Positions 3,634-60,543 of a stretch of DNA of 64,000 nucleotides are shown here, piece by piece. Source of the DNA: Bacteroidia bacterium. Its GTDB lineage: Bacteria > Bacteroidota > Bacteroidia > J057 > JADKCL01. The stretch spans positions 8,775 to 72,774 of the forward strand of contig JBFGVE010000002.1 of assembly GCA_041565275.1 (NCBI GenBank). Reading direction: 5' to 3'. The translations under genes were made by a program, and so were the position numbers. Under the pieces are notes generated by a model. The model saw only the letters and a list, made by a program, of their open reading frames with translations, ran no database searches and was not told the DNA's origin. Every line of letters starts with the position of its first letter. The first letter of the stretch is position 1.

Positions 3634-4086
3634 ATGAATCTTGTCAACAATACTCGTCAATCCTTCCTGATACTTTTGCTGATATTTTCTTTTGCCGCCA
3701 CTCAGGCTCAAAGTTTTAGATTGACTGAGGTGTCCGACGTCCATACTGTAAGTATCGATAAAGATACTGCTCCTGATCTGGACTGGGGTATAACCAAATT
3801 GGGATCTGTCGTTCGAGCAAAAGTGGAATTCACCAATACGCTTGGTAAACAGGTCACATTGGTTCGGGTTTTAGCCAGTGAAGGGTGCTATATTGTTGGT
3901 AGCCTTTACCCCTTAAGGAATGTCAAGGTCGAACCCGGTCAAACCCAAGAATTTTTCGTCATCGCCAAAGGCGACGAATTAGGAGAACATACCTACAATG
4001 TAGAATTGATCCTTGAAGATGAAAAAGGGATACGTTCTCGCAGGGGCGTTTTTCAATTTCGTGGTTCAGTCGACGCGAGAGAATAG
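3634..4086 (+). CDS. Small secreted protein, DUF1573-like (PapD/ASH-type beta-sandwich)
   Basis: 150 aa with a signal peptide (FLILLLIFSFAATQAQ). The layout LDWGITKLGSVVRAKVEFTNTLGKQVTL..EGC..VEPGQTQEFFV resembles DUF1573 proteins. This is motif-level only. Confidence 0.45.
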   Translation: MNLVNNTRQSFLILLLIFSFAATQAQSFRLTEVSDVHTVSIDKDTAPDLDWGITKLGSVVRAKVEFTNTLGKQVTLVRVLASEGCYIVGSLYPLRNVKVEPGQTQEFFVIAKGDELGEHTYNVELILEDEKGIRSRRGVFQFRGSVDARE

Positions 4087-4161: not shown

Positions 4162-5193
4162 TCAATTGAATAGCAGTATTTCACTGGGTATTGCTCCTGC
4201 TTTCCGTTCCATTTGCAGGTTGCCACTGTTTAAATCAAACTGGATTATATTCCCCGCTTGAACAAAATCAACTGCGTCTGTGATCAGAACAAAATCTTCC
4301 TGAAGATGGAAATTGTAAAATGTCCGGTTGGTAGCCTCAATAAAAGGACTGGTCGGTAAAGTTGTCTCTTCTATCCCCATCTTGTAAAAGTCCCCATCGA
4401 GGAAATACAGTGTTTGCCCATCTTGTGAAACCGCCAATTGAGTGGGATTTCTTTGCAGGCTGGGGAACGGAAAGGCATCTTCGACAGATCGGGTGGCAAC
4501 ATTCAGGCGCATCAAATTCGGGATCTCTTTTCCTATTCCACCGCTGGACAGTACCCAAACATCTCCTTTGGCATCCCGGACCAAACTGTTGGGTTCGAGG
4601 CCCACAGTTATACTGTCCATTACCTGGTCTGTAAGGATGTCGATCAACACGATTTTATCCGACCCCATCTTGGTCACCCAAGCTTCATTCCCGATCAAAA
4701 GCATTTCTTCTGTCCAGGCTCCGATCGGGATTTCTCCGGTTTGGGTGCAGTTGACGGGATTGACTACGGTCAATGAGCCTGAATAAAGATCACTCAGATA
4801 GGCCTTTTGTGAATTGATGGGCAGTAAGAATCGGGGAGAGGTGAGTCCTTCCAAATGGGCTTCAATTTTTCCAGTAACGATGTCCAGTTTGAAGAGCCTA
4901 CCACTGTTGTTTACCACAATGAAAACGGAGGAATCTATCCGGACCATAGATTGAGCGACATCACCCAATGGGATTCCATTGGCTTCAAAAAAAATATTTT
5001 GAAACACCTCACCTTCAGGATCCATAAAAGAAAGGGAAGCATTTCCCCAATTGAAATTCCCTTCGTTGAGAATCCAGGTTCCCTTGGACAAGTCGGAAGT
5101 TACATCTGGAACAGGGATTGGCTCGCCGGTGTTGCCACAACCAGCAAAAGCCAGGATCAGAATTCCTGACAGAAGAGTAAACAAATATTTCAT
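4162..5193 (-). CDS. Surface lipoprotein, beta-propeller-like (YncE/DUF5074-like); last gene of the B12-riboswitch operon and a candidate BtuG-type partner of the receptor
   Basis: 343 aa with a lipobox LILAFAGC. ILNEGNFNWGNASLSF follows just after the signal, then repeated strand-turn segments. The ATG overlaps the receptor stop (ATGA at 5190..5193). Confidence 0.55.
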   Translation of the reverse strand: MKYLFTLLSGILILAFAGCGNTGEPIPVPDVTSDLSKGTWILNEGNFNWGNASLSFMDPEGEVFQNIFFEANGIPLGDVAQSMVRIDSSVFIVVNNSGRLFKLDIVTGKIEAHLEGLTSPRFLLPINSQKAYLSDLYSGSLTVVNPVNCTQTGEIPIGAWTEEMLLIGNEAWVTKMGSDKIVLIDILTDQVMDSITVGLEPNSLVRDAKGDVWVLSSGGIGKEIPNLMRLNVATRSVEDAFPFPSLQRNPTQLAVSQDGQTLYFLDGDFYKMGIEETTLPTSPFIEATNRTFYNFHLQEDFVLITDAVDFVQAGNIIQFDLNSGNLQMERKAGAIPSEILLFN

Positions 5194-7139
5194 AGTCCTT
5201 TGCGTTCGAGTTGAAGTTTAATACCCAAATAAAAATTGCGACCAGGCATAGGCCGCCAGGCTATAGCTTGGTAGTCTGTATTCCACAGGTTTCTAATTCC
5301 TCCGTAAGTCTCGATCCGGGTGGATCTCCCCAAGGCGAAACTGCCCCGGACTTCACCCAGGTGATAGCTGGGAAGAAAGGTAGAATGATCGCTGGAAGTA
5401 TAGCGAATACCGGTAAATTGCTGAAAGACATAAAAATTAAAGCGCCCGTAGTTGCCTTGGAAGGAGATAGTACTGTTGTGAAGAGGGGTGTAGATCAACT
5501 GTTTGTCGAGGGCGATTGTCTGATCAGGCTGGGCCTGTATTCCCTGGCTGAAAACGAGGGCATAACCTGCTTTGATCCTGTAATTGAATCTATGGGTGTT
5601 TTGAAACCATTCCAGGTTGATCTCCCCTCCTCTGGTAAAGACCAATTGCACATTCTCAGGTGACCAAATATTACCCTGTTGTGGTATCCATTGGATCCAA
5701 TTGTCAATCAAGGATGCATAGAAGTCGGTCCCTATGATTAATTTCCGTTCATTTCGATTGCTAAGTGGCATGATCACTTTATCGAAACCCGCTTCGGCGG
5801 TCCAGGAGGTTTCGGTTTTTAGGTCTGGATTTCCACCAGGAACCCAGTACCGATCATTTAGGGTCGGAAAACGGTAATTTCTCGAAAGATTGACATTAAA
5901 ATGGTTAAAGTTATTGATGCGGTAGTGGTAGGCTGCATATCCGTAAGGGAGGGTGAACCGGCCGTTTTGGTAGGACTCCCGGACCAGAAGGTTGATGCGG
6001 TGTTTGCTTTTTCCCATTTTAAGTTTTGCAAAGGCAGTGGCTTTGATTTGGGAAAGGTCTTCGCCAAATACTTCAGAGCGAGCAATATCATACCCCATTT
6101 GGCCTCCGAATTTTAAATGGTCATCGTGAGGAAGTTTGGGATTAAGTGGAGTAAACTCTACATTGATGTCATTTTGAAAAGAGAGGGAACTACTGAAGAT
6201 AGAGGCCTGATAGTTTTGGTAATCGAGCCGTTCGGAACTGTGAGAGAGGGTACTTACCAGCATCCACTTGCCTGGAATGGTCCTTCGGTATTCAAGTTGT
6301 GCTTTGAGGGCACGGTCATATTGGGATTCGGTGAGATTACTGGTCAACATGGTGGGGGGCAACTCCCGGTCTGCAACATTGAACCAGATCCGGCCTATAA
6401 GTCCTTTTTCATAACTGCCTAGCCCAACTTGGTGCATGATGGAGAGTTGACTCATCCGGCTATGTTGAAGGGTGTCCAAGGGGCTTCCAGATCGGGCAAT
6501 ATTGCGGAATGTAAAATCATTTCGACCTGTGATTGCAACGGCCTGGATCGCCATCCAAAGTTTCCCTTTTCGGAATTGACCATCAAGGTGACTCCTGAAA
6601 TTTCCAAAGCTCCCGGCTTCTTGTCCTACTTCGAACTGTGCACAATTTCCCTCATAACCAAATAAACCCCAATTTGAAAGGTCAATTGCACCACCCAGTC
6701 CGCCGGATCCTAGGTCTAAAGATGTACTGCCAAAATGAACTTCTATCTTGTCAAAGAGCCCAACTGCACCCAAACTGAGATCTGTCTGGCCCGTCATGGA
6801 TGAGTTCATGGGAACCCCATTCCAGAATATCTGGGTATGACCCGCACCTGTACCCCTGAAAGAGGGTGTCGACAGGCCCACCTGCCCGTAGCTTTTGATG
6901 AATACGGCTGGGACCTCATTGAGTAGATCTGCCAAAGGAGAGGATTTGTGAAATTCGATTTGAGCTGGCCTGATATTGAGAACATTCTCGCGAGGGCTTA
7001 TTTCTAGGATCTCAACTGCTGGGAGTTCACTTGTATCAATGGAATCAATCGATTGCTCATCAACTATCTGTCCTGTCACCCAACTCGAATACAGCAATAC
7101 GCAGGTTAAAATGGTTACAAAATAGCGCCTATTGTACAT
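5190..7139 (-). CDS. btuB: TonB-dependent outer-membrane receptor, BtuB-sized (putative cobalamin/corrinoid receptor)
   Basis: 649 aa with a signal peptide. The plug region reads VPAVFIKSYGQVGLSTPSFRGTGAGHTQIFWNGVPMNS..GQTDLSL and is followed by a long beta-barrel-type sequence. It lies in an operon behind a cobalamin riboswitch. The gene symbol is inferred from context, not from a search. Confidence 0.7.
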   Translation of the reverse strand: MYNRRYFVTILTCVLLYSSWVTGQIVDEQSIDSIDTSELPAVEILEISPRENVLNIRPAQIEFHKSSPLADLLNEVPAVFIKSYGQVGLSTPSFRGTGAGHTQIFWNGVPMNSSMTGQTDLSLGAVGLFDKIEVHFGSTSLDLGSGGLGGAIDLSNWGLFGYEGNCAQFEVGQEAGSFGNFRSHLDGQFRKGKLWMAIQAVAITGRNDFTFRNIARSGSPLDTLQHSRMSQLSIMHQVGLGSYEKGLIGRIWFNVADRELPPTMLTSNLTESQYDRALKAQLEYRRTIPGKWMLVSTLSHSSERLDYQNYQASIFSSSLSFQNDINVEFTPLNPKLPHDDHLKFGGQMGYDIARSEVFGEDLSQIKATAFAKLKMGKSKHRINLLVRESYQNGRFTLPYGYAAYHYRINNFNHFNVNLSRNYRFPTLNDRYWVPGGNPDLKTETSWTAEAGFDKVIMPLSNRNERKLIIGTDFYASLIDNWIQWIPQQGNIWSPENVQLVFTRGGEINLEWFQNTHRFNYRIKAGYALVFSQGIQAQPDQTIALDKQLIYTPLHNSTISFQGNYGRFNFYVFQQFTGIRYTSSDHSTFLPSYHLGEVRGSFALGRSTRIETYGGIRNLWNTDYQAIAWRPMPGRNFYLGIKLQLERKGL

Positions 7140-7142
7140 CTG

Positions 7143-7550
7143 TCATTGTCTTGCATGGTACGGGTTGAGCACTTTTGCCGTGAATTCGTGTTGGTCATCG
7201 ATTTTAATGCGAAAAATATATACGGCCCCCGGCTGCTTTTGCAGCGTATACTCTTCTTCCCAGTTGCCTTCGGCGGCTGTGGTCCAATGTTCCATCCTTT
7301 GCCCACTCATGGCATATACCTCCACTTCTACGGAAGTTTTTATTCCTTTAAACCGAAGGAGTACGGTCCAGTTGTTATTCTCTTCGCGCATACCGAGCTC
7401 GACTTTGGCTTCGGTGAATGGTTCTTTCCCTATCTGGAAGGCTGTACTTGTACAGGCGTAGCCATCTCCGGCACCTCCAGTATAAGGTACCTGTGCGGAA
7501 CCCGTAAAGGTAAAGGCTAACCCAAATGTGAGAACAGTGAGCCATTTCAT
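7143..7550 (-). CDS. Secreted miniprotein: signal peptide plus short linker plus a T9SS-CTD-like C-terminal domain
   Basis: 135 aa with signal MKWLTVLTFGLAFTFTGSAQ. The C-terminal part (VEVEVYAMSGQRMEHW..YTLQKQPGAVYIFRIKIDDQHEFTAKVL) looks like a Por_Secre_tail sorting domain. ATGA overlap with the upstream gene at 7547..7550. Its stop lies 3 nt from the receptor start. Confidence 0.5.
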   Translation of the reverse strand: MKWLTVLTFGLAFTFTGSAQVPYTGGAGDGYACTSTAFQIGKEPFTEAKVELGMREENNNWTVLLRFKGIKTSVEVEVYAMSGQRMEHWTTAAEGNWEEEYTLQKQPGAVYIFRIKIDDQHEFTAKVLNPYHARQ

Positions 7551-9091
7551 CTCCGCACCCCTCTTCCTCCGGATGTTCCGCGTCTGGAGGACGGTGCCAG
7601 CCCAGAATAATACCTGTCCGATACCGCCAAGTCACGGAACCCTGGTAGAATACCACTGTTCCAGCCTCCTCCCCGGTAGCCACCACCGGCACTTTCTGGC
7701 CAACCTGAAACATCAGCGTTGCCATTTGTATCCAGTTGTCCATTTCCATTACTTCCCAAGAAGGAAACACCAACCGGGCCTGCATTGACGCACTGTTCCC
7801 ATAGGTTGCCGCTCATTTCCATGACACCATAGTAGGAGGCGCCAGATTGCAGGCGGTCACTGCTGGCGTGGGCTGCAAAGCCGCAGCGGAGTGGCCCTTG
7901 GGGACCGTCGTAGCCGTGGCTGGCCAGTCCCATTAAAGCAGTAGGTGATTCTGTCACCGACTCCCATAGGGTACCGTCTTGTAAAAGGGTATTGGCATCC
8001 ATCACCAAATCAGTTCCCCAGGCGAATTCATTTGGAACTGGGACCACAGGACCACGGCAAGCCTTTTCATACTCTAGTTCTGTCATGGGGGAAAGGCCTG
8101 CCCAATCAAAATAGGCCAGGAGATCCTCCCAGTTAAGAAAATTGCAGGCGCGGTTCTGACCATCCTCCTCGCTGTTGAAAGCTCCATCTGCAGAAAGATC
8201 GGATCCGAAGACGGCTGGCTGTCCATTCAATCCAGGTTGATAAACCCGGATTCCATTTCGAAGATTGGCGAAACGGGTGAAGGCATGGGTGCCAGCTTCA
8301 ACATACGGCCCGGATGAGGTCCGGGAGACTTGTTGGTCAACCGTCAAGTGGTTGAGAAAGTCTGTGTATTGTTCTTGACTGATCTCATACTTCATGCAAT
8401 AGAAGCCATTGCTACCTTTGGGATACGCCGCAGGAATTAATCCATTGGGAGGATATGTACTGTTTCCGGTGGTAGATCCGGGGTCGGGTCCGAGTGCAAT
8501 TTCAGATTCGTCCATAACCAGTACAGTTGCTTGGGAAGTACTCTCTCCAAGACTGAAATTGCTGCTGCCATCTCCTAGCCAATATGGCCCCCCCGGAATC
8601 CAGACCATTTCCACACCAAATACATCCAAAGAATAATTGCCCTCGGCAAGTGCGTTGGCCAACTGGAGGGTAACCTGAGTGCTATAGATTGTGCCCGAAC
8701 CAATATAGCAGCGTTTTAAGAATACCCCGAGACCATCTGAAACAGGGTTGATGGTCAATAGGTAAGGGTCAGAAGACTCAAAGCCAATTCCTGAATTAGA
8801 AAATTGAAGTGGGTCCCACTCTCCCTCACCTGTCTTGATCTTGGCAAAGATCCAAACTGCATCGTGGTTACCGGGCCCAATGTTCAAGTACCAGCTGTTT
8901 TCCCAACTGACTCGGAACGAAATCGTTTGCTTATCTACCAGCCTGGCGTCACTCAATTGCAGGTTATTGGCAAGTGAAATCTGGAAAAACAATCCTACAC
9001 AAAGCATAGTTCTACCCAATTGGCAAAAAGGGAGGAAGATCCGTTGATGGATTTTGGACCTCCGGTGGATCATTTTTGATAAATTGATCAC
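7547..9091 (-). CDS. FGE-sulfatase/SUMF1-family (GldJ/GldK-like fold) protein with a unique N-terminal domain
   Basis: About 510 aa. Family-like motifs are MVWIPGGPYWLGDG, LSPMTELEYEKACRGP, SGNLWEQCVN and YRGGGWNSG. There is an N-terminal hydrophobic signal. The start is ambiguous: GTG at 9091 (overlapping the upstream stop) or ATG at 9073. Confidence 0.65.
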   Translation of the reverse strand: MINLSKMIHRRSKIHQRIFLPFCQLGRTMLCVGLFFQISLANNLQLSDARLVDKQTISFRVSWENSWYLNIGPGNHDAVWIFAKIKTGEGEWDPLQFSNSGIGFESSDPYLLTINPVSDGLGVFLKRCYIGSGTIYSTQVTLQLANALAEGNYSLDVFGVEMVWIPGGPYWLGDGSSNFSLGESTSQATVLVMDESEIALGPDPGSTTGNSTYPPNGLIPAAYPKGSNGFYCMKYEISQEQYTDFLNHLTVDQQVSRTSSGPYVEAGTHAFTRFANLRNGIRVYQPGLNGQPAVFGSDLSADGAFNSEEDGQNRACNFLNWEDLLAYFDWAGLSPMTELEYEKACRGPVVPVPNEFAWGTDLVMDANTLLQDGTLWESVTESPTALMGLASHGYDGPQGPLRCGFAAHASSDRLQSGASYYGVMEMSGNLWEQCVNAGPVGVSFLGSNGNGQLDTNGNADVSGWPESAGGGYRGGGWNSGILPGFRDLAVSDRYYSGLAPSSRRGTSGGRGVRR

Positions 9092-10383
9092 CGCTTGATT
9101 AAATGTTTTGTATAGTCACCAGATTCCGCATGTAATTTGAGCAGGTAGTTTCCTGCTGAGAGGTTACTTAGATCAAGCTCGGTGATTACCTTCACTTCCG
9201 AAGTGAAAAAGACACAATTCCCGGAAAAGGAGTAGATCCTTATAGAGAGGGGTAAGTCATTCAGACGACTTGCATCTATTGTTACCTGATCCGTGAAGGG
9301 GTTGGGATAGGATTTAACAATTACCTCGTCTGAGAACAAATCACTGGAACCAGTGGCGAGGCGCCCATCTACGTCAAAGGCTTCAGGTGAGACTCCTACT
9401 GCCACGGAATCTATCAGAATTCCGGAGGAATTATACCGGTAAATACTCCCCCAGGTACTGTAATCGGTTGCAGACAGATAAAATTCTATGTTCTGGGTAT
9501 CCATGGCACTTCCGGCCCAAGGCCCGGGGATCATAGGTGTATTGCTGAGTGCATAGGGATTTGATCCTTCGATCTCAACACTGTTAAAAGCTCCGTCAAA
9601 CATACCGTAGAGGGTATTGCCAACCAGGGTTGTAGCGCCGTTGAAGCCGATAGGGTAGGGTACTGTGGTGGAAATTGCGGTGCGTGCTCCGAGTGGAATC
9701 TGGGAAATAACTCCGGTAGTACTGCCAAAACTGAGGGAACTCAGAGTGTAGAGCATACTGTCACCTGGGCGGAAGAAAATGTCAGTGACAGATTCTCCCA
9801 GTGAGTCAAGGTTAATTTCGGTGATGAGCGTGCTGTTGTTCAGGTTGATCAGGGCAACTTTACCCGTTGTACTACCGAATCCACCAGGGACGGTCACATA
9901 GGCAGTGTCATTGACCACAACTACTCCTTCGCATTGGCCGGAAATGTTTTGTACAGCAGCAACTTCGCTGAGGTCAGACTGGTTGAAGATCCGTACGTAG
10001 TCAGAGTTAACGGGAAACCCACAAGCCGCAACAAGGGCGGCCTGGTTCGGAGCAGTGGTAATGGATCGAACTCCGGGAGCAGGTACAGACGACATTCGGG
10101 TATAAGTGTCGATGTTATACTTCAGGATCATACCGTCAGCGGCAACATATGCGTACTGGCCGTCGACCAGCACATCCTGTACTGAGCTAACCTCAATTGT
10201 ATCAAAAATGAAGTAACTGCCGGTAACAAGGTTCCAGGCAGCAACCGTAGCTGCATCAGTTGTGTCTGCAAAATCTCCTCCGTTGGCGATGATCAACTGC
10301 CTTGAAGGTTGGGCCAGTGACAGCAGCGGAATGAAGAAAGCACTAAAGAATGCGAATCCGATAAGAATAGAAGAAAACCTCAT
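9088..10383 (-). CDS. T9SS-secreted protein, beta-propeller-like body with a C-terminal Por sorting domain; first gene after the cobalamin riboswitch
   Basis: 431 aa with signal MRFSSILIGFAFFSAFFIPLLSLAQ. The body has LIIANGGDF and repeated strand-turn segments. The C-terminus KSYPNPFTDQVTIDAS..IRIYSFSGNCVF..LSAGNYLLKLH..YTKHLIKR is a typical type-A T9SS CTD. Confidence 0.65.
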   Translation of the reverse strand: MRFSSILIGFAFFSAFFIPLLSLAQPSRQLIIANGGDFADTTDAATVAAWNLVTGSYFIFDTIEVSSVQDVLVDGQYAYVAADGMILKYNIDTYTRMSSVPAPGVRSITTAPNQAALVAACGFPVNSDYVRIFNQSDLSEVAAVQNISGQCEGVVVVNDTAYVTVPGGFGSTTGKVALINLNNSTLITEINLDSLGESVTDIFFRPGDSMLYTLSSLSFGSTTGVISQIPLGARTAISTTVPYPIGFNGATTLVGNTLYGMFDGAFNSVEIEGSNPYALSNTPMIPGPWAGSAMDTQNIEFYLSATDYSTWGSIYRYNSSGILIDSVAVGVSPEAFDVDGRLATGSSDLFSDEVIVKSYPNPFTDQVTIDASRLNDLPLSIRIYSFSGNCVFFTSEVKVITELDLSNLSAGNYLLKLHAESGDYTKHLIKR

Positions 10384-10504
10384 AGCGTTAAATTAGGCTA
10401 ACAATGAATACCATGAGCTTTGGATGTGAAATGAGGTGACAAGTCGGAAAACCTGTACCCGCATTTTCATGATAACTTTTCACCCGAAAGCCCTGAAACT
10501 ATGC

Positions 10505-10680
10505 AAAAGGCAGGTCTTCTGGCTTCCCAAACTCTGGTACCTTCCCATTCGGACATGAACAGTGGTTTTGACCAGATCCCGACCTGGATCGGGTGGGTTA
10601 CAGCAGCGGGGACTGCTCCGGAATTACACCGGATTCCCTTTTAATCCCAGGTCGTCGGACCCGGAAACCTATGCGGCACG
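10505..10680 (-). promoter_or_regulatory. Cobalamin (adenosylcobalamin/B12) riboswitch
   Basis: Four conserved blocks read 5'->3' on the minus strand. AAAAGGGAATCCGGTGTAATTCCGGAGCAGTCCCCGCTGCTGTAA is at 10642->10598. AACCACTG is at 10567->10560. GGGAAGGTACCAGAG is at 10546->10532. The B12 box AGCCAGAAGACCTGCC is at 10524->10509. All are in canonical order, about 125 nt upstream of the ATG at 10383. Confidence 0.88.
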
Positions 10681-10745
10681 AAAGTAGGGATTATTCTCAA
10701 CAAATCTTGTATTTTCGCGTTATAACATGGAATTGATCTGAATAA

Positions 10746-12891: not shown

Positions 12892-14379
12892 ATGAAAAGA
12901 AAGATTTTCCACGTACTCTGGATTCTGCTCATCCTTGGAGGACTGGGAATCTCACTGGCCTGGCTGTTCGTCCCCGACTTCAGCTTGATGGTCGGTCGCC
13001 GTTACCGAATGTATTTCGAGGGAAATACCTATCCGGTGACCTATTTGCAAGCCACCCCTTTTGGCGATTCTATTTTTCTTTCCTGGGAAAACCCCGACGA
13101 CAGCCGCTTTGACCATACGGAAATCTATTATTCTGCCAAGGTAGTACCGGACCGGGATGACTACCAAAAGCCACAAAGCGGTTCGGCAGTTGACTCCAAT
13201 AGTGAAGATCCTATCGCAAAAGATCCCAATGGTGGTAATCTCAAAGAATCTCAGAACGGTGACGATAAATCAAGGGTCATCAAGCTGAAAACCCTGGACA
13301 AAAAAACCTCTTATATGTGGTTCAAGCCACCCGGTGGCAACAAAGGTAAAAATGCCTTTTTTACAGCCTACACGGTAGATGGAAACAGTCAATTTTCAGT
13401 TGGTGTCACCGATAAAATCGAACGCAATGGCCAGGGATCAACCTCAGAGAACCCCGACCAAACCTCGAATGCAGGAACGGATTCCGGTTACTCCATTGCA
13501 GACATGAATCCAAACTCAACAATTGAAGGAACCGTATCACACCACTCAATGCCTAATGGTGTCTTCACCTATTGGTACGAATTCAAAAGCGTCTTTTTTA
13601 ACCTTCCGTATTTCATTCTGGAAAATGACCAATTGAAGTGTTGGTTTGCCAACGGCACCCTCTTTGCTATTGAGCACAAAACCGCTGACCTCCGCCCCGA
13701 ATACAACCCATTTGGCCCGATCTATTCTTTCACCAACAGCATGGACACCTGGGAAGTGGTTGCCCCTGAAGTTTCCTACCCTGTCTTCTGCCTTCCCTCC
13801 GAAATGTTTGAGGGCAGTGACAGCACATGGATTGAAACCTACACCGACAGTAATTCCATTACTTTCACCCGCCACCGTTCCTTCGAAGGGGCATTTGCCC
13901 GGATGACCTATACCCTTGACTCCACCCGGCTCAAAGTATCCCTTTTGCCCCTCAACGATTCCAAATACTACGTCCGTTTCAACACCATCGGCAATCCCAA
14001 CTTCAAAGCCATTACCCACTGGGAGGCCAGGCAGGTACTAGGATCAGTTGAAGAAGATGGAAATGAGGAAGCCCAGATTGCGGCCGCAGAAGCTCATACC
14101 CCCGACCAATTCTACAAGCATCAAGACAAAGTCTTCAACGACGAATATCCTTACCTTAACTCCCGCACCTTTCTCCTTATGGGACCGCAAACCGAATTCC
14201 ACCTCTACCACGGTGCACAGAAGCTCTACGTCCTTCGCGAAATCAAAGGGACCAAAGACTTTTTCTATAAGAATTGCTCAGGTGAGGAAAATTTCACTTT
14301 TGGGATGCAGTGGCCATATGAAAATTATGTAGCGGCCATTGATCAGGAATTTTCGTTTGTGGTGGATGTGGTTTATTAG
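12892..14379 (+). CDS. Hypothetical membrane-anchored protein (N-terminal TM, FN3-like module, low-complexity linker, unknown C-terminal domain)
   Basis: 495-aa ORF with [22 protein letters not shown]. The segment [22 protein letters not shown] looks like an FN3-type strand pattern. It is inserted in opposite orientation between rfbA and rfbC. No family recognised. Confidence 0.5.
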
Positions 14380-20878: not shown

Positions 20879-22225
20879 TCAGGTTGCCATTCGCAGGATC
20901 CATTCCAGTTGAATTATTAATAAAGTTGCAACTGCGATGCGCCAATTTCTTCTTCCTTTAACGAAACCTTTCATTCCCGCTGGTTTTTTATCTCCATATA
21001 TCATCCAAGAAGTTCCTGCCAATGCCGCATAACCGATAAATATAGGCATCAGAGGTAGGTGATAGGATGGGTGGGAAAAAGAAAAAAAATAGGGTAGGGC
21101 ATAGAGTAAAATGAATATTAGGGTATCCCTGCGTAAGAAGGGTTGTGGAGAATACGATGGTAGAAATAACCAACGCAAGGCCAATACTATTACCAGCAAG
21201 TAGAGAAACCCGTCCACTGCGAGTGTAAAATAGCCCAAAACAGGACGTCCCAGGTTTACCAGTCGAGCTCCGGTAAAGGAGTCAGCTGCAAAGAAGGTCC
21301 GCATTCTGCTGGCTGTTCGTAGGATAAACATTTCGGGTTCATTGACAATATGGCGACGGGTTGCCGTCCAATAGACATTATTTTTTTCAGAGGGAGAGTA
21401 TTCGTGAATGGATTTTAATTCGTTTAAGAGCCCCGGGGGATTCTGGGGTGACATGGTCCAATGTGAGCCATAGTACCACGTTTTGTAGGAAGGGGTCCAA
21501 GGGTTGTTGCCCAGATAGACATTGCGGGCGGTAGCATCGTTAAAGAAAACAAAGCGACCGTGTTGATGGAAGAGAAAACTCAAGGTCAAGGGTACAATGA
21601 CAGCTACAGGGATCAGGGCCGCTGCAAAGCGTGGCCGATGCCGAGTCCAAAACAATGGGCCGAAGACCGCAAGGAGAAAGGTTGAGGGTCGGAAGAGAAT
21701 CGCTAATGCCAAAAAAAGGCCTGAAAGCAGGGCCGGGAAGATATCCCGGTGTTTTCGAAACTTAAGGTACTGGTCGAAGGCCAGGGAGAGTAAAGCAGCA
21801 GTTGGAAGCTGGCTAAGAGGTTCAATGCTGTGGTGGATCAAGGCTGGGAAATAAGCAAGGAGCACCATGGCGAGGTTGGCAGGAAGGTCACCTGATTGCC
21901 TGCGGAGTATGCTGCGTACGGCAATCGCCATTGCCAAGAACCAAGGTAACATGGCTACCCGGGATATCCATGGGTTAAATCCAAAAGCAATTTTCCAACC
22001 AGCAAGATAATAGGTAAGCCCGGGAGGCCAGTAGGGTTCATAGTCATATCCTTGCGCGATGGCGTTGCCAATGCCATCGTAGTAAAGGGCATCACCGATA
22101 AGAGGGCTGTGTGCGTTTACAAGTAGGAAAAAAAGACGCAAAACCATCGCCCAGGCCAATAAAACCCAGAAAGAACTTGATTTACCCAACCATCGCCGCA
22201 AGGCTGAGATCACATTTATCGTCAC
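20879..22225 (-). CDS. Polytopic membrane glycosyltransferase, GT39/ArnT(PMT_2)-like
   Basis: 448 aa with more than 10 hydrophobic segments and an early loop GDALYYDGIGNAIAQGYDYEPYWPPG, as in ArnT-like transferases. GTG start. Confidence 0.5.
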   Translation of the reverse strand: MTINVISALRRWLGKSSSFWVLLAWAMVLRLFFLLVNAHSPLIGDALYYDGIGNAIAQGYDYEPYWPPGLTYYLAGWKIAFGFNPWISRVAMLPWFLAMAIAVRSILRRQSGDLPANLAMVLLAYFPALIHHSIEPLSQLPTAALLSLAFDQYLKFRKHRDIFPALLSGLFLALAILFRPSTFLLAVFGPLFWTRHRPRFAAALIPVAVIVPLTLSFLFHQHGRFVFFNDATARNVYLGNNPWTPSYKTWYYGSHWTMSPQNPPGLLNELKSIHEYSPSEKNNVYWTATRRHIVNEPEMFILRTASRMRTFFAADSFTGARLVNLGRPVLGYFTLAVDGFLYLLVIVLALRWLFLPSYSPQPFLRRDTLIFILLYALPYFFSFSHPSYHLPLMPIFIGYAALAGTSWMIYGDKKPAGMKGFVKGRRNWRIAVATLLIIQLEWILRMAT

Positions 22226-57958: not shown

Positions 57959-58215
57959 TTTTCTCAGTCTTTATAGGTAGTTTACACGTTGCGTTGAATT
58001 TCGTTGTCCTTTTATATTTCCTGGGGCAACCAATGAAATCGTTATAGCTACGTTAGCTTGAATTGGGTTTTTGAGGCTGGAGTCGAAAATAAGGGTGGGG
58101 TACCTACGTGTAAAGCTTGGTGGGTTCTCTTTTTGGAATCTCAACTGATACCTAAGCCAAATAAGCCAGCCACTGATCTTGTATTGCTTTTGGATCACTC
58201 TAATGAGTGTTGGTT

Positions 58216-60543
58216 ATGGAAACGCTAAGAAAATCGCATCTATTTTTGATAAAGTTCCTTGTCTTGGTCATTGGAATGGCGTTTCCCCAGTTTGCTATAG
58301 CGCAAATACCGACCAATTATTGTTTTGGAGGAACAAAGGTCGGGGATATTACTCCAACTGTTCCTTGGCAAGTTTGGCCATGTGTTACGGGTGGGGACTA
58401 CCTGGAATTTTATGCTGTTGCAGGAAACCAATATATTTTTACCTTCTGTTTTGCGGGTGGTGCAGCTACCTGGGATACCCAGCTAAGTATCTCGGACAGT
58501 GCTGGAAATTTTCCAACGGGATATGACCCAGGAACCCCCGACATTGACAGTGTCCGTAATGATGACTTTTGTTTCTTGCAGTCCTATTTGGTTTTCCCTT
58601 GTCGAGCCAGTGGAACTTACCGGTTACTGACTAGTTTCTACGACTCTGGCTCGGGGGGAGATTGTCAGACCTCTACTCAGTGTGGTGCCCTTGCATATAA
58701 GGTTGAGCCTCCCAGAGGTGGGACAGGAGATGATTGTGTCAATCCTCATGTAATCAGCTCACTACCATTCTCCACAGGTGGACTGACCACCAGAGATTTC
58801 AGTAATGATTATAATCAATCCCATGCCTGCAATTCAACCTATATGAACGGTTTGGATTACGTTTTTTCCTACGATGGAACCGCAGGAGAATGCATCTCTA
58901 TTTTTACTCAGAACACATTCACTTACTCTGGTCTTTTCCTGTTGGATGGTTGTCCTGACGACCCTTCTACCAATTGTGTAGCTTTTTCTGAGGCAGCTTC
59001 TGGAAGTCCTTTCCTGAGTAACATTGCACTGGGTTCTACAACCACTTATTATATTGTGATATCCGGTATCTCGGGTCTGCCGTATATGCCTTTTGATATC
59101 AGTGTTAGCAATTGTGTAGCTGTAGGTATTGGAAATACTTGTGCAAATCCATTTCCGATTCCTGGTCTGCCCTATAGCCAACAGGGCTTTACGACTTGTG
59201 GGTTTGGCGATGATTACGATAATACTACTGCTTGCTCCAGTTCTTTTATGAACGGAGAGGACTTTGTATTTAGTTATAGCTCACCTGGTGATGAATGTAT
59301 CCGTATTGATTTGGAAAACACAGGCCAGAATACGGGATTTTTTGTCTATGATGGTTGTCCTACGCTATCCAATTGTGTAGCTCAACGAACGGAAGTTGAT
59401 GGGAATCCAAAATTGAGAAGGATTAACTTGGACAGTGCTGGCACTTATTACATTGTCGTTTCCACCCAGCCCAACCCTAATTGTACTCCTTTTGACATAG
59501 AAATAACTCAATGCCCTCCAGCATGTAATAGTCCTTCAAATGGTTCTGATTTATGTTCTCAGGCCACTGTAGTTAGCTTGGGTCCCAATGATACAGTATG
59601 TGGATTCACCGATGAGCTGTACGGGGCTGATGCCAGTACTGATCTCCTAAATGATTTCTGCGGAACCATTGAAAATAATACTTGGTATTCTTTTGCTGCG
59701 GATTCTACTACCATGACTTTTGTTGCAGAAGCTGGAAATTGCCTTTCCGGATTTGGTATACAAGCAGAAGTCTTCTCCTCTTCTGATTGCTTCAACTTCA
59801 CTTCTGTTTCTGATTGCTGGAATCCCATGTTGGCTACTACTGGTATTTTCCAGGCTACAAACCTCACGGTGGGTAATTCTTATTATCTTATGTTAGATGG
59901 CTATGCCGGAGATGATTGTGAGTTCCGGCTTTATCGTAGCCAGGATCCTCTTCCGATTGAGTTCGGACCCTTTGTTGTGAGTCTGAATGGCTCTACTTCT
60001 ACCATAAGTTGGGAAACCTTCATGGAATCCAACAATCGGGGCTTTGTTATTGAGCGTGGGCAGCAAGATGGTTTGGGTGAAACTGGTCATGTCCTCTGGG
60101 AAGATATATCCTTCGTAAAGGGACTGGGAGATACCGAAGATGGTCATGTTTACACCTATGTTGACGAGATTACTTTCAATGGTAGGCCTTATTTTTACCG
60201 TATCAGGCAATTGGATTACAATGGACAGTCGACTTTTTCAGAGATTCGCTCAGTAAATCCAGAAGGACCAATTTCCAGTAGCTTGCTGGCCCTCTATCCA
60301 AACCCAGCTAAGGATTGGATAAATTTGACTTATTATTCTCACCAGAAAGCATCTGTCAGTTTGCAAATGCTAGATCTGAAAGGGCGGGTCGTTATGAAAA
60401 AGGATTTCCAAGAAAACTCTCCTGGTGTGTTTGAACACAAGATCCACTTGGGTCAATTTAGCCAGGGGCTATACCTGTTCAACCTACAGCTGGGATCTGC
60501 AAGATATACCCGCAAGATTTTTATTTCCCGATCAGATTTGTAG
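58216..60543 (+). CDS. Large T9SS-secreted protein with four Cys-rich ~130-aa tandem modules, an Ig/FN3-like module and a Por C-terminal sorting domain
   Basis: Signal METLRKSHLFLIKFLVLVIGMAFPQFAIAQ from the ATG at 58216. Repeated modules include GDDCVNPHVISSLPFST..YMNGLDYVFSY..GECISI.. and GNTCANPFPIPGLPYSQ..FMNGEDFVFSY..DECIRI... The CTD reads LALYPNPAKDWINLTY..LDLKGRVV..GLYLFNLQ..YTRKIFI. Confidence 0.65.
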   Translation: METLRKSHLFLIKFLVLVIGMAFPQFAIAQIPTNYCFGGTKVGDITPTVPWQVWPCVTGGDYLEFYAVAGNQYIFTFCFAGGAATWDTQLSISDSAGNFPTGYDPGTPDIDSVRNDDFCFLQSYLVFPCRASGTYRLLTSFYDSGSGGDCQTSTQCGALAYKVEPPRGGTGDDCVNPHVISSLPFSTGGLTTRDFSNDYNQSHACNSTYMNGLDYVFSYDGTAGECISIFTQNTFTYSGLFLLDGCPDDPSTNCVAFSEAASGSPFLSNIALGSTTTYYIVISGISGLPYMPFDISVSNCVAVGIGNTCANPFPIPGLPYSQQGFTTCGFGDDYDNTTACSSSFMNGEDFVFSYSSPGDECIRIDLENTGQNTGFFVYDGCPTLSNCVAQRTEVDGNPKLRRINLDSAGTYYIVVSTQPNPNCTPFDIEITQCPPACNSPSNGSDLCSQATVVSLGPNDTVCGFTDELYGADASTDLLNDFCGTIENNTWYSFAADSTTMTFVAEAGNCLSGFGIQAEVFSSSDCFNFTSVSDCWNPMLATTGIFQATNLTVGNSYYLMLDGYAGDDCEFRLYRSQDPLPIEFGPFVVSLNGSTSTISWETFMESNNRGFVIERGQQDGLGETGHVLWEDISFVKGLGDTEDGHVYTYVDEITFNGRPYFYRIRQLDYNGQSTFSEIRSVNPEGPISSSLLALYPNPAKDWINLTYYSHQKASVSLQMLDLKGRVVMKKDFQENSPGVFEHKIHLGQFSQGLYLFNLQLGSARYTRKIFISRSDL

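Follow-up and report, generated by a model that had tools for sequence, protein, structure and literature searches.

The locus considered here raises the question of what three genes for putative surface proteins, two of them carrying predicted T9SS sorting domains and one an FGE fold, do between a cobalamin riboswitch and the genes for a BtuB-like receptor and its lipoprotein partner. The window, i.e., the whole stretch of DNA that was analysed, covers 64,000 nucleotides of a contig from a Bacteroidia bacterium. The reading we favor, with a probability of about 0.62, is that of a B12-repressed BtuBG importer extended by surface capture proteins delivered through T9SS. The features on which the argument builds are as follows.

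10679-10686, minus strand: putative promoter box of the Bacteroidota -7 type, TACTTTCG, lying on the 5' edge of the riboswitch match
10492-10687, minus strand: cobalamin riboswitch aptamer (RF00174; cmscan 103.8 bits, E 6.9e-25, model positions 1-189)
9088-10383, minus strand: G1, 431 aa
7547-9091, minus strand: G2, 514 aa with a GTG start
7143-7550, minus strand: G3, 135 aa
7458-7484, minus strand: conserved tag YTGGAGDGY (G3 residues 23-31), just past the predicted cleavage site between GSA and QVP
5190-7139, minus strand: G4, 649 aa
4162-5193, minus strand: G5, 343 aa

The five open reading frames lie exactly where the earlier note had placed them. On one side an ORF of the plus strand (3634-4086) converges on them, and on the other thioredoxin-like genes (from 10746) diverge from them. 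The riboswitch is full-length with respect to its model (gathering score, 31.5), and the G1 ATG is found 108 nt downstream of its end. The box at 10679-10686 is one that we take to be a candidate promoter from the Bacteroidetes -7 consensus TAnnTTTG; over 12 aligned orthologous leaders its consensus is TTACCTTTG, with A8, T11, T12, and G14 invariant. G2 and G3 share an ATGA overlap (7547-7550), as do G4 and G5 (5190-5193), G3 and G4 are 3 nt apart, and G1 and G2 overlap by the 4 nt of a GTGA or, with an ATG at 9073 as the start instead, are separated by 14 nt, one fewer than first counted. Alternative ATG starts of G2 are present at 9073 (M7) and 9007 (M29), and one of these is the probable true start. 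The overlapping stop and start codons, along with the conservation of the riboswitch and the gene set across many genomes, argue for one unit behind the riboswitch, as had been proposed, and we infer that G1-G5 are co-transcribed.

This conservation is extensive. Synteny of the riboswitch and the module is found in at least 46 non-redundant loci and in several gene orders, contradicting uniqueness to one genome, the carriers being dozens of environmental Bacteroidota, and the five-gene arrangement is beyond chance. Nafulsella turpanensis ZLM-10 and Pontibacter sp. G13 are examples of carriers in culture. The exact order riboswitch-G1-G2-G3-G4-G5 is seen in 19 of the 46 non-redundant riboswitch-bearing loci, with permuted or truncated versions in the others. 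Using Rfam, 11 of 18 loci proved to have an orthologous riboswitch upstream of the same genes, and using nhmmer 49 of 85 did, the calls being concordant in all 18 doubly checked loci (18/18). Five operon architectures were observed, each under the riboswitch. One variant is BtuB-G1-G2-G3-BtuG, another, from Cytophagales, is G2-G3-BtuB-BtuG, and in a third a G2::G3 fusion is followed by a G1-like protein and then by BtuG. In a Bacteroidales variant, the riboswitch is present and BtuBG is absent, and a DUF4465 protein (a BtuJ-type B12 binder, E 1e-44 to 1e-54) is followed by G2-G3. Of the earlier proposal of an extended scavenging or remodelling apparatus linking T9SS to a TonB receptor, the scavenging part agrees with the five riboswitch architectures, one of them with DUF4465, while remodelling remains unsupported, G2 being devoid of the FGE cysteines.

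The core of the operon is the most readily interpreted. G4 possesses Plug (52.8 bits) and TonB-dependent barrel (66.9 bits) domains and matches the solved Bacteroides thetaiotaomicron BtuB chains 8bmx_C, 8p98_A, and 8p97_A at E 5e-46 to 7e-46 (phmmer); judged by homology, it is a Bacteroidota-type BtuB TonB-dependent transporter. G5, with a DUF5074 match of 57.6 bits (cut-off 27.2) and the lipobox LAFAGC19 (lipid-anchor Cys19), matches the solved BtuG chains 8p97_B, 8okv_B, and 8bn0_A over residues 36-337 (phmmer, E 1.9e-52 to 1.1e-50) and shares with BtuG the motifs NEGNF, GNAxLS, LGDVAQSM, VVNNS, and SPR[YF]. By the same token, it is a BtuG surface lipoprotein, the seven-bladed propeller lid of BtuB, even though, unlike in BtuG2 of B. 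thetaiotaomicron, two tryptophans of the upper-ligand cavity are replaced (W194 by M and W272 by N; for the cavity see PMC10404256). Homology thus points to a BtuB-BtuG core, a TonB-dependent barrel under a B12-binding propeller lipoprotein cap, beyond the mere resemblance noted previously, and B12 regulation of the operon and corrinoid import by G4-G5 are both very probable.

G1 had been described as a T9SS-exported, propeller-like protein. The sorting domain is confirmed (residues 359-431; Por_Secre_tail 49.8 bits, cut-off 27; TIGR04183 46.4 bits), but the second term was too vague, as a profile of 12 positional G1 orthologues aligns with one of 12 BtuG-position orthologues at an hhalign probability of 98.5% (E 2e-15, 288 columns), and searches with the G1 profile recover solved BtuG chains (E ~3e-6) as well as solved CTDs (E 1.8e-11). 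Homology therefore identifies G1 as a beta-propeller paralogous to BtuG in which a T9SS CTD of type A stands in place of the lipid anchor, presumably secreted or surface-attached via T9SS. Most of the corrin-site BtuG motifs are replaced in G1 (NEGNF by ANGGxF, DVAQS by SVQxV, VVNNS by VAADS), thus B12 binding by this protein is only putative, and we give it somewhat less than an even chance.

G2 does belong with the FGE fold, as suggested: PF03781 (FGE-sulfatase) matches at 38.2 bits (cut-off 23.3), limited to residues 228-434, the G2 profile matches human FGE at E 7e-5, and the AlphaFold model of a homologue 43% identical to G2 (pLDDT 88.3) retrieves bacterial FGEs with Foldseek (E 5e-8, target TM 0.52). 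None of the NCBIfam models, including those for GldJ/GldK, match G2. An N-terminal beta-sandwich (residues ~40-165), which is a new domain, precedes the FGE-fold domain (~170-514), and a signal-peptidase-I site, with cleavage between A and NNL, is conserved in the family. The family is large, with more than 3,000 homologues, 2,001 clusters when grouped at 50% identity, and a spread over at least 513 GTDB species, and G2 is unusually conserved, with ~50% identity across orders and more than 60 near-invariant positions. As only one Cys (C316) is invariant, the catalytic Cys pair of FGE is absent, and the FGE-fold domain is predicted to be non-catalytic. Five residues, R486, D487, A489, Y495, and R504, are invariant in the B12 clade of G2 only, and by manual alignment all fall within the loop that bears the catalytic cysteines in true FGEs; this former active-site loop co-varies with the type of partner motif.

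That partner is G3, which had been taken for almost nothing but a sorting domain. It turns out to also possess a conserved N-terminal motif that travels with G2: its build is a signal peptide, an N-terminal tag, a short linker, and a CTD, and the family form of the tag is Q-x-x-Y-x-G-G-x-G-D-G-Y-A. All of the 24 aligned members share Y23, G25, G26, and G30, conservation reaches 90% or more at Q20 and G28, and the CTD opens with YPNP in most; the family profile matches solved T9SS CTDs (8glk_D, E 4e-8). The profile searches called for in the earlier note recovered Por_Secre_tail, FGE-sulfatase, DUF5074, and the TonB barrel, while for G3 TIGR04183 scored 21.8 bits, slightly below the cut-off of 23; it is matched at E ≤ 0.01 by 17 of the 24 family members. 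Further T9SS cargo of the source organism is encoded at 58207-60543 of the window.

The linkage of G2 to the tag is close. In nearly every genome examined, G2 is followed by a tagged T9SS substrate, and the strict pattern [YF]xGGxG[DGS]G[YFH] is present in 44 of 72 ORFs directly downstream of G2 genes versus 8 of 1,342 other ORFs (at least 100 aa) from the same loci. Natural G2::G3 fusions are found in three lineages (P0125, P0149, P0152) and are independent; they keep the linker, the motif, and the CTD, which assigns G2 to export by T9SS, and a separate G3 is absent from the loci carrying them. In the AlphaFold model of a natural fusion, with only three sequences covering this part, the linker and the motif (501-547) have pLDDT below 50 and the motif is not docked on the FGE domain. 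The B12 clade of G2 has the riboswitch upstream in 47 of ~53 loci with sufficient flank, versus 0 of 14 for two other clades, which have unrelated neighbors and larger partners, namely large adhesin-like T9SS cargo proteins with repeats of the motif at their N-termini. The G2-partner cassette is thus not intrinsically a B12 device.

The biochemical roles that we infer for G1, G2, and G3 would fit together as follows. The riboswitch would repress an operon for corrinoid capture and import at the outer membrane. G1 would leave the cell by T9SS and act either as a released, hemophore-like corrinoid carrier or as a surface-attached B12 trap feeding BtuG, by analogy with the BtuJ-to-BtuG/BtuH hand-off ("bucket brigade") of B. 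thetaiotaomicron. G2 and G3 would form a single functional unit, G2 being a non-catalytic FGE-fold binding protein without an export tag of its own, and G3 providing the sorting domain and the short N-terminal tag pGlu-x-x-Y-x-G-G-x-G-D-G-Y-A (here pGlu-VPYTGGAGDGYA). By binding this tag, G2 would be exported by, and surface-tethered through, G3 and would serve as an additional corrinoid-binding or hand-off station. A function of G1-G3 in corrinoid acquisition is probable. The specific tag-docking, piggy-back part of G2-G3 is speculative and on balance unlikely; we know of no established case of such T9SS export.

The same tag allows for another reading, in which G2 would be an enzyme on a re-tooled FGE scaffold, modifying in the periplasm the N-terminal tag Y-x-G-G-x-G-D-G-Y that G3 carries, with a peptide of ~35-40 residues left once PorU has cut off the CTD and exported by T9SS; this RiPP-like product would bind cobalt or corrinoids or serve in signalling, and the CTD would be a removable export leader. 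The passenger of only ~35-40 residues, with its invariant motif 0-3 residues from the mature N-terminus, the enzyme-like conservation level of G2, the clade-specific residues at the former active-site loop, and the fusions, as those of enzyme and substrate, all fit this scheme, as do the activities of FGE-family members: FGE itself works on short peptide motifs, and PvdO is said to function in pyoverdine maturation. However, neither a copper-binding Cys pair nor an alternative catalytic constellation was found in the G2 family alignment, in the fusions G2 would leave the cell together with its substrate, the repeated motif on large cargo in the non-B12 clades is more in keeping with a docking site than with a peptide product, and we know of no precedent. 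We consider the scheme improbable.

To a similar extent we doubt that G1-G3 are B12-starvation-induced adhesins or other surface proteins, co-regulated with BtuBG but mechanistically separate and not binding corrinoids, for example for attachment to B12-producing cells or particles. The adhesin-like partners of the non-B12 clades, the C-terminal extensions of remoter G2-like proteins (resembling, by eye, lectin (LamG-like) or DUF1566-type domains), the weak resemblance of the G2 N-domain to peptide-binding beta-sandwiches, and the motifs lost from G1 would agree with such roles, yet G1 remains a BtuG-family propeller that, within the sampled loci, is nearly confined to these riboswitch operons, G2-G3 are paired with a DUF4465 B12 binder under the riboswitch without BtuBG, and no adhesin-capable passenger domain is present in the 24-member G3 family alignment. 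Finally, it is highly improbable that riboswitch control is limited to G4-G5 and that G1-G3 are a neighboring T9SS cassette with its own promoter, incidentally tightly spaced. Sigma-70-like and terminator-like matches inside the region would speak for this, but they occur at about the frequency in shuffled sequence (9 versus 10.1, and 15 versus 8.8 ± 3.7); on the other side, the junctions have 4-nt overlaps, G1-G3, sitting between the riboswitch and btuB, are the genes closest to the former, and in several architectures only G1/G2/G3-type genes follow it.

The importer extended by T9SS-delivered capture proteins, which we thus prefer, can be compared with known systems. The BtuB-BtuG system of B. 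thetaiotaomicron, with its accessory B12-binding lipoproteins BtuH and BtuJ (Wexler 2018, PMC6143338; Abellon-Ruiz 2023, PMC10404256; Putnam 2022, PMC8941943; BtuJ1 preprint, 10.1101/2025.07.01.662609), is similar in its control by a cobalamin riboswitch, in BtuB being directly followed by BtuG, and in the extra surface proteins of the operon. Here, in contrast, these proteins are neither lipoproteins nor DUF4465/BtuH domains, G1 and G3 carrying T9SS sorting domains and G2 the FGE fold, and btuFCD genes are absent from the five-gene operon. The literature searched, including the key BtuG/BtuH/BtuJ papers, is silent on T9SS and on FGE/sulfatase-type proteins in B12 uptake loci, and within it G1-G3 appear undescribed in this role, in agreement with the earlier note. 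To our knowledge, gut Bacteroides lack T9SS and use surface lipoproteins instead; if our reading is true, T9SS cargo would take the place of BtuH and BtuJ in environmental Bacteroidota.

With FGE/SUMF1 and the PF03781 family (EgtB, OvoA/OvsA, PvdO), G2 shares the fold of its C-terminal domain. Unlike FGE/SUMF1, it lacks the Cu-binding cysteine pair, possesses the extra beta-sandwich and large insertions, and is secreted, and its gene adjoins, in nearly all loci, a tagged T9SS substrate, not sulfatases. Also comparable are PorK/GldK/GldJ, FGE-fold lipoproteins of the T9SS/gliding machinery (PMC12421860, PMC12365241, PMC12635249), which likewise represent a repurposed, non-catalytic FGE fold associated with T9SS in Bacteroidota. 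G2 differs from these in having a signal-peptidase-I site and no lipobox and in behaving like cargo, with a CTD fusion known from three lineages, rather than like a machine part, and their chains are absent from its PDB sequence matches and its top 50 Foldseek matches. Another parallel is offered by the ligand shuttles of TonB-dependent receptors, such as the HasA-type hemophores and HmuY/HusA of Porphyromonas gingivalis. In its proposed role G1 would resemble these as a soluble or surface-attached binder encoded and co-regulated with a TonB-dependent receptor, and would differ from them in its corrinoid ligand, in its paralogy to the very protein that forms the lid of its receptor, and in its export by T9SS.

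By the Rfam models, the window holds one full-length cobalamin riboswitch, and it is followed on the same strand by five genes, here called G1 to G5 in their order after the riboswitch:

10492-10687, minus strand: cobalamin riboswitch RF00174 (Rfam), 103.8 bits versus a gathering score of 31.5, model positions 1-189 of 189
9088-10383, minus strand: ORF G1, a BtuG-like propeller with a T9SS C-terminal sorting domain (CTD)
7547-9091, minus strand: ORF G2, a beta-sandwich joined to an FGE fold
7143-7550, minus strand: ORF G3, a probable tagged mini T9SS substrate
5190-7139, minus strand: ORF G4, a BtuB homologue
4162-5193, minus strand: ORF G5, a BtuG homologue

G1 and G2 overlap by 4 nt (GTGA), G2 and G3 overlap at an ATGA, a gap of 3 nt separates G3 from G4, and the stop codon of G4 overlaps the ATG of G5 in the ATGA at 5190-5193; the five genes are probably co-transcribed. 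The neighbors on either side are unrelated to the module: downstream of G5 lie iPGM and an ORF that converges on the unit, and upstream of the riboswitch lie thioredoxin-like genes that diverge from it. The nearest relative of the window proteins is encoded by an uncultured Bacteroidia MAG (locus L005), with 64-80% amino-acid identity over all five. The domains that the earlier note had guessed without database searches all hold: a CTD in G1, PF03781 in G2, a sub-threshold TIGR04183 match in G3, Plug and barrel in G4, and a DUF5074 lipoprotein in G5. For two long ORFs elsewhere in the window, at 12892-14379 (plus strand, 495 aa) and 20879-22225 (minus strand, 448 aa), Pfam gives no match at E <= 1e-4.

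Within the leader (10370-10520, minus strand), the 3' strand of the aptamer, AGAAGACCU, is predicted to pair with AGGUUUUCUUC, which starts directly after the AUG of G1 (MFE -41.7 kcal/mol, z -3.1 versus shuffles), and this predicted pairing may belong to an expression platform that acts on translation. A TAnnTTTG-like box is found at 10679-10686 on the minus strand, at the very 5' edge of the Rfam match (window copy TACTTTCG). It has the consensus TTACCTTTG in the 12 aligned leaders (alignment A2), where it hardly varies and always lies at the 5' edge. It is consistent with the Bacteroidetes -7 promoter element, and this candidate -7 box would place the transcription start at the aptamer.

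The last two genes represent the BtuB-BtuG core, as the earlier note had suggested, and homology to solved chains from Bacteroides thetaiotaomicron upholds this. G4 matches PF07715 (Plug, 52.8 bits) and PF00593 (barrel, 66.9 bits), and the solved BtuB chains 8bmx_C and 8p98_A (E 5e-46). An E. coli-type BtuB equivalog was considered and rejected (TIGR01779, 63.9 bits versus a cut-off of 599.7; NF007926, 45.2 versus 836), and, judged by these models, G4 is a relative, not an equivalog, of the enterobacterial BtuB. G5, encoded directly downstream of this btuB homologue, is a lipoprotein (lipobox LAFAGC19) that matches PF16819 (DUF5074, 57.6 bits) and, over residues 36-337, across the whole seven-bladed propeller, the BtuG chains 8p97_B (E 1.9e-52) and 8bn0_A (BtuG2, E 1.1e-50). 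It has in common with BtuG the motifs NEGNF, GNAxLS, LGDVAQSM, VVNNS and SPR[YF] (SPRF in G5), of which NEGNF, LGDVAQSM, VVNNS and SPRF belong to blades 1-4. Of the four residues named for the upper-ligand cavity of BtuG, Trp194, Trp272, Tyr316 and Tyr335 (PMC10404256), G5 keeps Tyr316 alone, with Met, Asn and Phe replacing Trp194, Trp272 and Tyr335, respectively.

G1 is, on sequence grounds, a BtuG paralogue, not a BtuG. When 12 G1-position genes were compared with 12 BtuG-position genes as separate positional alignments (A5, A6), hhalign returned a probability of 98.5% (E 2e-15, 288 columns); cross-scores from the iterated HMMs of G1 and G5, which were cross-contaminated, were excluded, and the clean positional alignments were used instead. 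The G1 profile matches both the solved BtuG chains (E ~3e-6) and solved T9SS CTDs (E 1.8e-11), and the CTD of G1 itself scores 46.4 bits with TIGR04183 (cut-off 23) and 49.8 bits with PF18962 (cut-off 27). A true BtuG is rejected for G1, as it possesses a signal-peptidase-I site (SLA|QP) and no lipobox, thus no lipid anchor, and as the corrin-site motifs of BtuG are replaced by ANGGxF, SVQxV and VAADS. Since these versions of the motifs differ from those of BtuG, G1 is a plausible rather than an established corrinoid binder.

G2 belongs to a large family, with over 3,000 homologues, a spread over at least 513 GTDB species and 2,001 clusters at 50% identity (E <= 1e-30), all these counts taking in the whole family, including clades without a B12 link. 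Common to its members are a signal peptide ending in A|NN, an N-domain with the motifs SWxNSW and NHDAVW, and an FGE-like domain ending in GGRGVR. The window protein, with a signal-peptidase-I site at A|NNL, matches PF03781 at 38.2 bits over residues 228-434 only, and has no NCBIfam match at E <= 0.1; its profile matches human FGE (E 6.6e-5). Its own AlphaFold model, built from an 18-sequence alignment, has a pLDDT of 59.5 (below 50 in the FGE domain), and Foldseek matches it to generic beta-sandwiches alone. For a 43% identical homologue, P0149, a natural fusion of G2 to G3, a 118-sequence alignment gave a pLDDT of 88.3, and the FGE-like domain of this model matches the bacterial FGEs 6xtq, 6muj and 2q17 (Foldseek E 5e-8, target TM 0.52), as well as OvsA; its N-domain is a beta-sandwich with weak Foldseek matches. 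The Cu(I)-binding catalytic cysteine pair of FGE is C336/C341 of the human enzyme, in the C-terminal loop. In a manual alignment to human FGE, the G2 segment matching this loop is RGGGWNSGILPGFRDLAVSDRYY, or ...GWNSGILPGFRDLAVSDRYY..., with no Cys in either; the sole invariant Cys among 18 family sequences is C316. Lacking the catalytic pair, G2 does not qualify as a formylglycine-generating enzyme, and a function in sulfatase maturation is rejected, as no sulfatase genes are found nearby. PorK, GldK or GldJ are rejected as well, based on the signal-peptidase-I site and on the lack of GldJ/GldK NCBIfam matches at E <= 0.1, and chains of these proteins are not found among the PDB hits of G2 or its top 50 Foldseek hits. 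The corrinoid remodelling proposed in the earlier note has to be abandoned: the operon encodes no CbiZ- or CobS-type protein, and no enzyme active site is recognizable in G1-G3. Some remote G2-like proteins (P0227, P0245, P0259, P0278) have NWDAAW instead of NHDAVW, no separate partner in the same polypeptide context, and other C-terminal extensions, DUF1566-like or LamG-like by eye, and these differing extensions suggest that the beta-sandwich and FGE-fold pair may be a general extracellular module.

Across 84 related loci, the gene 3' of G2 is nearly always one for a T9SS substrate, which in the B12-linked clade is approximately 115-155 residues long. The G3 proteins of this clade are built of a signal peptide, the motif AQ-x-x-Y-x-G-G-x-G-D-G-Y-A, a linker of approximately 25 residues and a CTD starting with YPNP (alignment A7), with Y23, G25, G26 and G30 invariant in the family; as a peptide, the tag would read pGlu-VPYTGGAGDGYA. 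With TIGR04183, the window G3 reaches 21.8 bits, short of the cut-off of 23, and Pfam gives no match for it; of 24 positional orthologues, 17 have a TIGR04183 match at E <= 0.01, and the profile of the family matches solved CTDs, 8glk_D (E 4e-8) and those of gingipains. This family was assembled from positional orthologues, as the direct large homologue search with G3 yielded 2 proteins, due to a word-index limit. One further T9SS cargo is encoded in the window at 58207-60543 on the plus strand (778 aa, Por_Secre_tail 44.1 bits, PPC pre-peptidase domain), and the organism thus has T9SS substrates besides those of the module. Of 72 ORFs directly downstream of G2, 44 contain the strict tag motif, versus 8 of 1,342 other ORFs, and direct scanning of the downstream DNA revealed extra copies, missed by the ORF map, at L009, L020 and L041. 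Natural fusions, of G2, a linker, the motif and a CTD in one polypeptide, are the proteins P0125 (locus L043), P0149 and P0152, whose mutual identity is only 42-50%, and there is no separate G3 at the fusion loci. By Rosetta-stone logic, these fusions are evidence for a joint action of G2 and G3 and for an exit of G2 from the cell via T9SS. Recognition of the tag by G2 is a proposal; linker and motif (residues 501-547) are disordered in the fusion model (pLDDT < 50), and docking of the tag on G2 thus has no modelling support, although, with just three sequences covering the tail, the model does not speak against docking either. The loop of G2 equivalent to the FGE active site covaries with the motif type of the partner, and contains all five residues invariant in the B12 clade only (R486, D487, A489, Y495, R504). 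A less likely rival is that G2 is an enzyme that modifies the tag, yielding an exported peptide, for which the place of these residues speaks and against which the missing cysteine pair.

The order found in the window recurs, as a search across genomes, called for in the earlier note, reveals. Rfam confirmed the riboswitch in 11 of 18 loci tested, and an nhmmer profile built from the confirmed riboswitches, agreeing with Rfam in 18 of 18, detected it in 49 of 85 sources, in each of them upstream of the genes and with the same orientation. When loci are grouped by G2 sequence clustering, the riboswitch is present at 47 of approximately 53 loci of the B12 clade with enough flank and at 0 of 14 in two other clades; the B12 linkage is conserved, but in one G2 clade only. 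The architectures following the riboswitch are these:

G1-G2-G3-BtuB-BtuG, in 19 of 46 non-redundant loci, the window counted
BtuB-G1-G2-G3-BtuG
G2-G3-BtuB-BtuG, in Cytophagales
a G2::G3 fusion, then a 750-aa G1-like protein, then BtuG
DUF4465, then G2-G3, in four Bacteroidales loci

DUF4465 (PF14717, BtuH/BtuJ), matched by none of the five window proteins, is an experimentally established BtuJ-type B12-binding domain (10.1101/2025.07.01.662609, PMC13398666). Among cultured organisms, Nafulsella turpanensis ZLM-10 has riboswitch-G2-G3-BtuB-BtuG (L041) and Perlabentimonas gracilis riboswitch-DUF4465-x-x-G2-G3 (L051), and Pontibacter sp. G13 is a further carrier (P0148). Two loci (L047, L053) have a divergent layout, with BtuG, BtuB and a G3-like gene on one strand and the riboswitch, G1 and G2 on the other, pointing away, so that G3 accompanies btuB, not G2. 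Outside the B12 clade, G2 stands with its partner alone, as a cassette of two genes amid housekeeping genes, and the partners are larger (306-2,075 aa), with tandem, Cys-containing copies of a looser motif. A cassette of G2 and a partner with a T9SS CTD is also found in a sequence labelled as the gammaproteobacterium Glaciecola amylolytica THG-3.7 (L080, CP034120.1, 6980-9423); its gene order matches that of a Fluviicola sp. MAG (L081, 5780-8199), the first 70 residues of the partners being nearly identical. G2 is further encoded on contigs from a Luminiphilus bin and a Bifidobacterium breve bin (L066, L071), and all three labels look like mis-assigned or mis-binned DNA of Flavobacteriales or other Bacteroidota. 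Two more RNA elements near G2 loci, a DUF805b motif (RF02914, 44.4 bits, L020, 3265-3302) and a SAM riboswitch (RF00162, 65.8 bits, L043, 15000-15099, minus strand), are seemingly unrelated to the module.

The homologies, the conserved linkage to the riboswitch, and the coupling and fusions of G2 and G3 are shown by the sequences; a common transcript, export via T9SS, corrinoid binding by G1 or G2 and recognition of the tag are inferred. Under the mechanism we propose, scarce B12 would cause the riboswitch to release expression of the entire operon, and G4 and G5 would form the import complex, a known mechanism assigned here by homology. G1 would be exported via T9SS, then released or attached to the surface, where it would gather corrinoids and pass them to BtuG, much as BtuJ1 hands off to BtuG2. 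G2 has a Sec signal peptide as its sole export signal; by binding G3 at its N-terminal tag, it would be exported and tethered through the CTD of G3, adding another binding station, if G2 binds corrinoids. An alternative, which accords less with the relationship of G1 to BtuG, is that G1-G3 are adhesins induced by starvation. Independent transcription of G1-G3 is the weakest rival, set against the tight junctions through to G5, and the scan of the region for consensus promoters and terminators gave counts close to those for shuffled sequence and was left out of the evidence. To the joint reading as a whole we assign a probability of about 0.25: that G2 and G3 represent an unrecognized two-component T9SS system, of a pGlu-x-x-Y-x-G-G-x-G-D-G-Y-A tag on a mini-substrate and an FGE-fold protein recognizing or modifying it, by which a CTD-less protein rides out and is tethered to the surface, or a modified peptide is exported by T9SS, and that one clade was recruited for B12 capture, making, with the secreted BtuG paralogue, a hemophore-like corrinoid system.

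B12 is a keystone micronutrient that most Bacteroidota must scavenge, and, to our knowledge, all that is known of its capture at their outer membrane comes from gut Bacteroides, which display lipoproteins. For Bacteroidota of soil, freshwater and the sea, the locus suggests a second solution, a widespread one, in which the accessory proteins of the B12-linked clade appear to be delivered by T9SS. The large unnamed FGE-fold family gains a testable context, the conserved tag and its FGE-fold partner could prove a new T9SS-associated mechanism and may reveal a new way to load or anchor T9SS cargo, and the predicted secreted BtuG paralogue could act as an extracellular corrinoid carrier, with a bearing on how natural communities cross-feed on B12 and compete for it. 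The earlier note's statement that the three promoter-proximal genes have no described role in corrinoid uptake agrees with our search, as neither the full texts that it covered, from which many subscription papers are missing, nor the key BtuG, BtuH and BtuJ papers link T9SS or FGE-type proteins to B12 loci, and an earlier mention is thus possible. Overall, the locus shares the BtuB-BtuG core with the closest known systems, the btu loci of B. thetaiotaomicron, and differs from them in the accessory set and its route to the surface.
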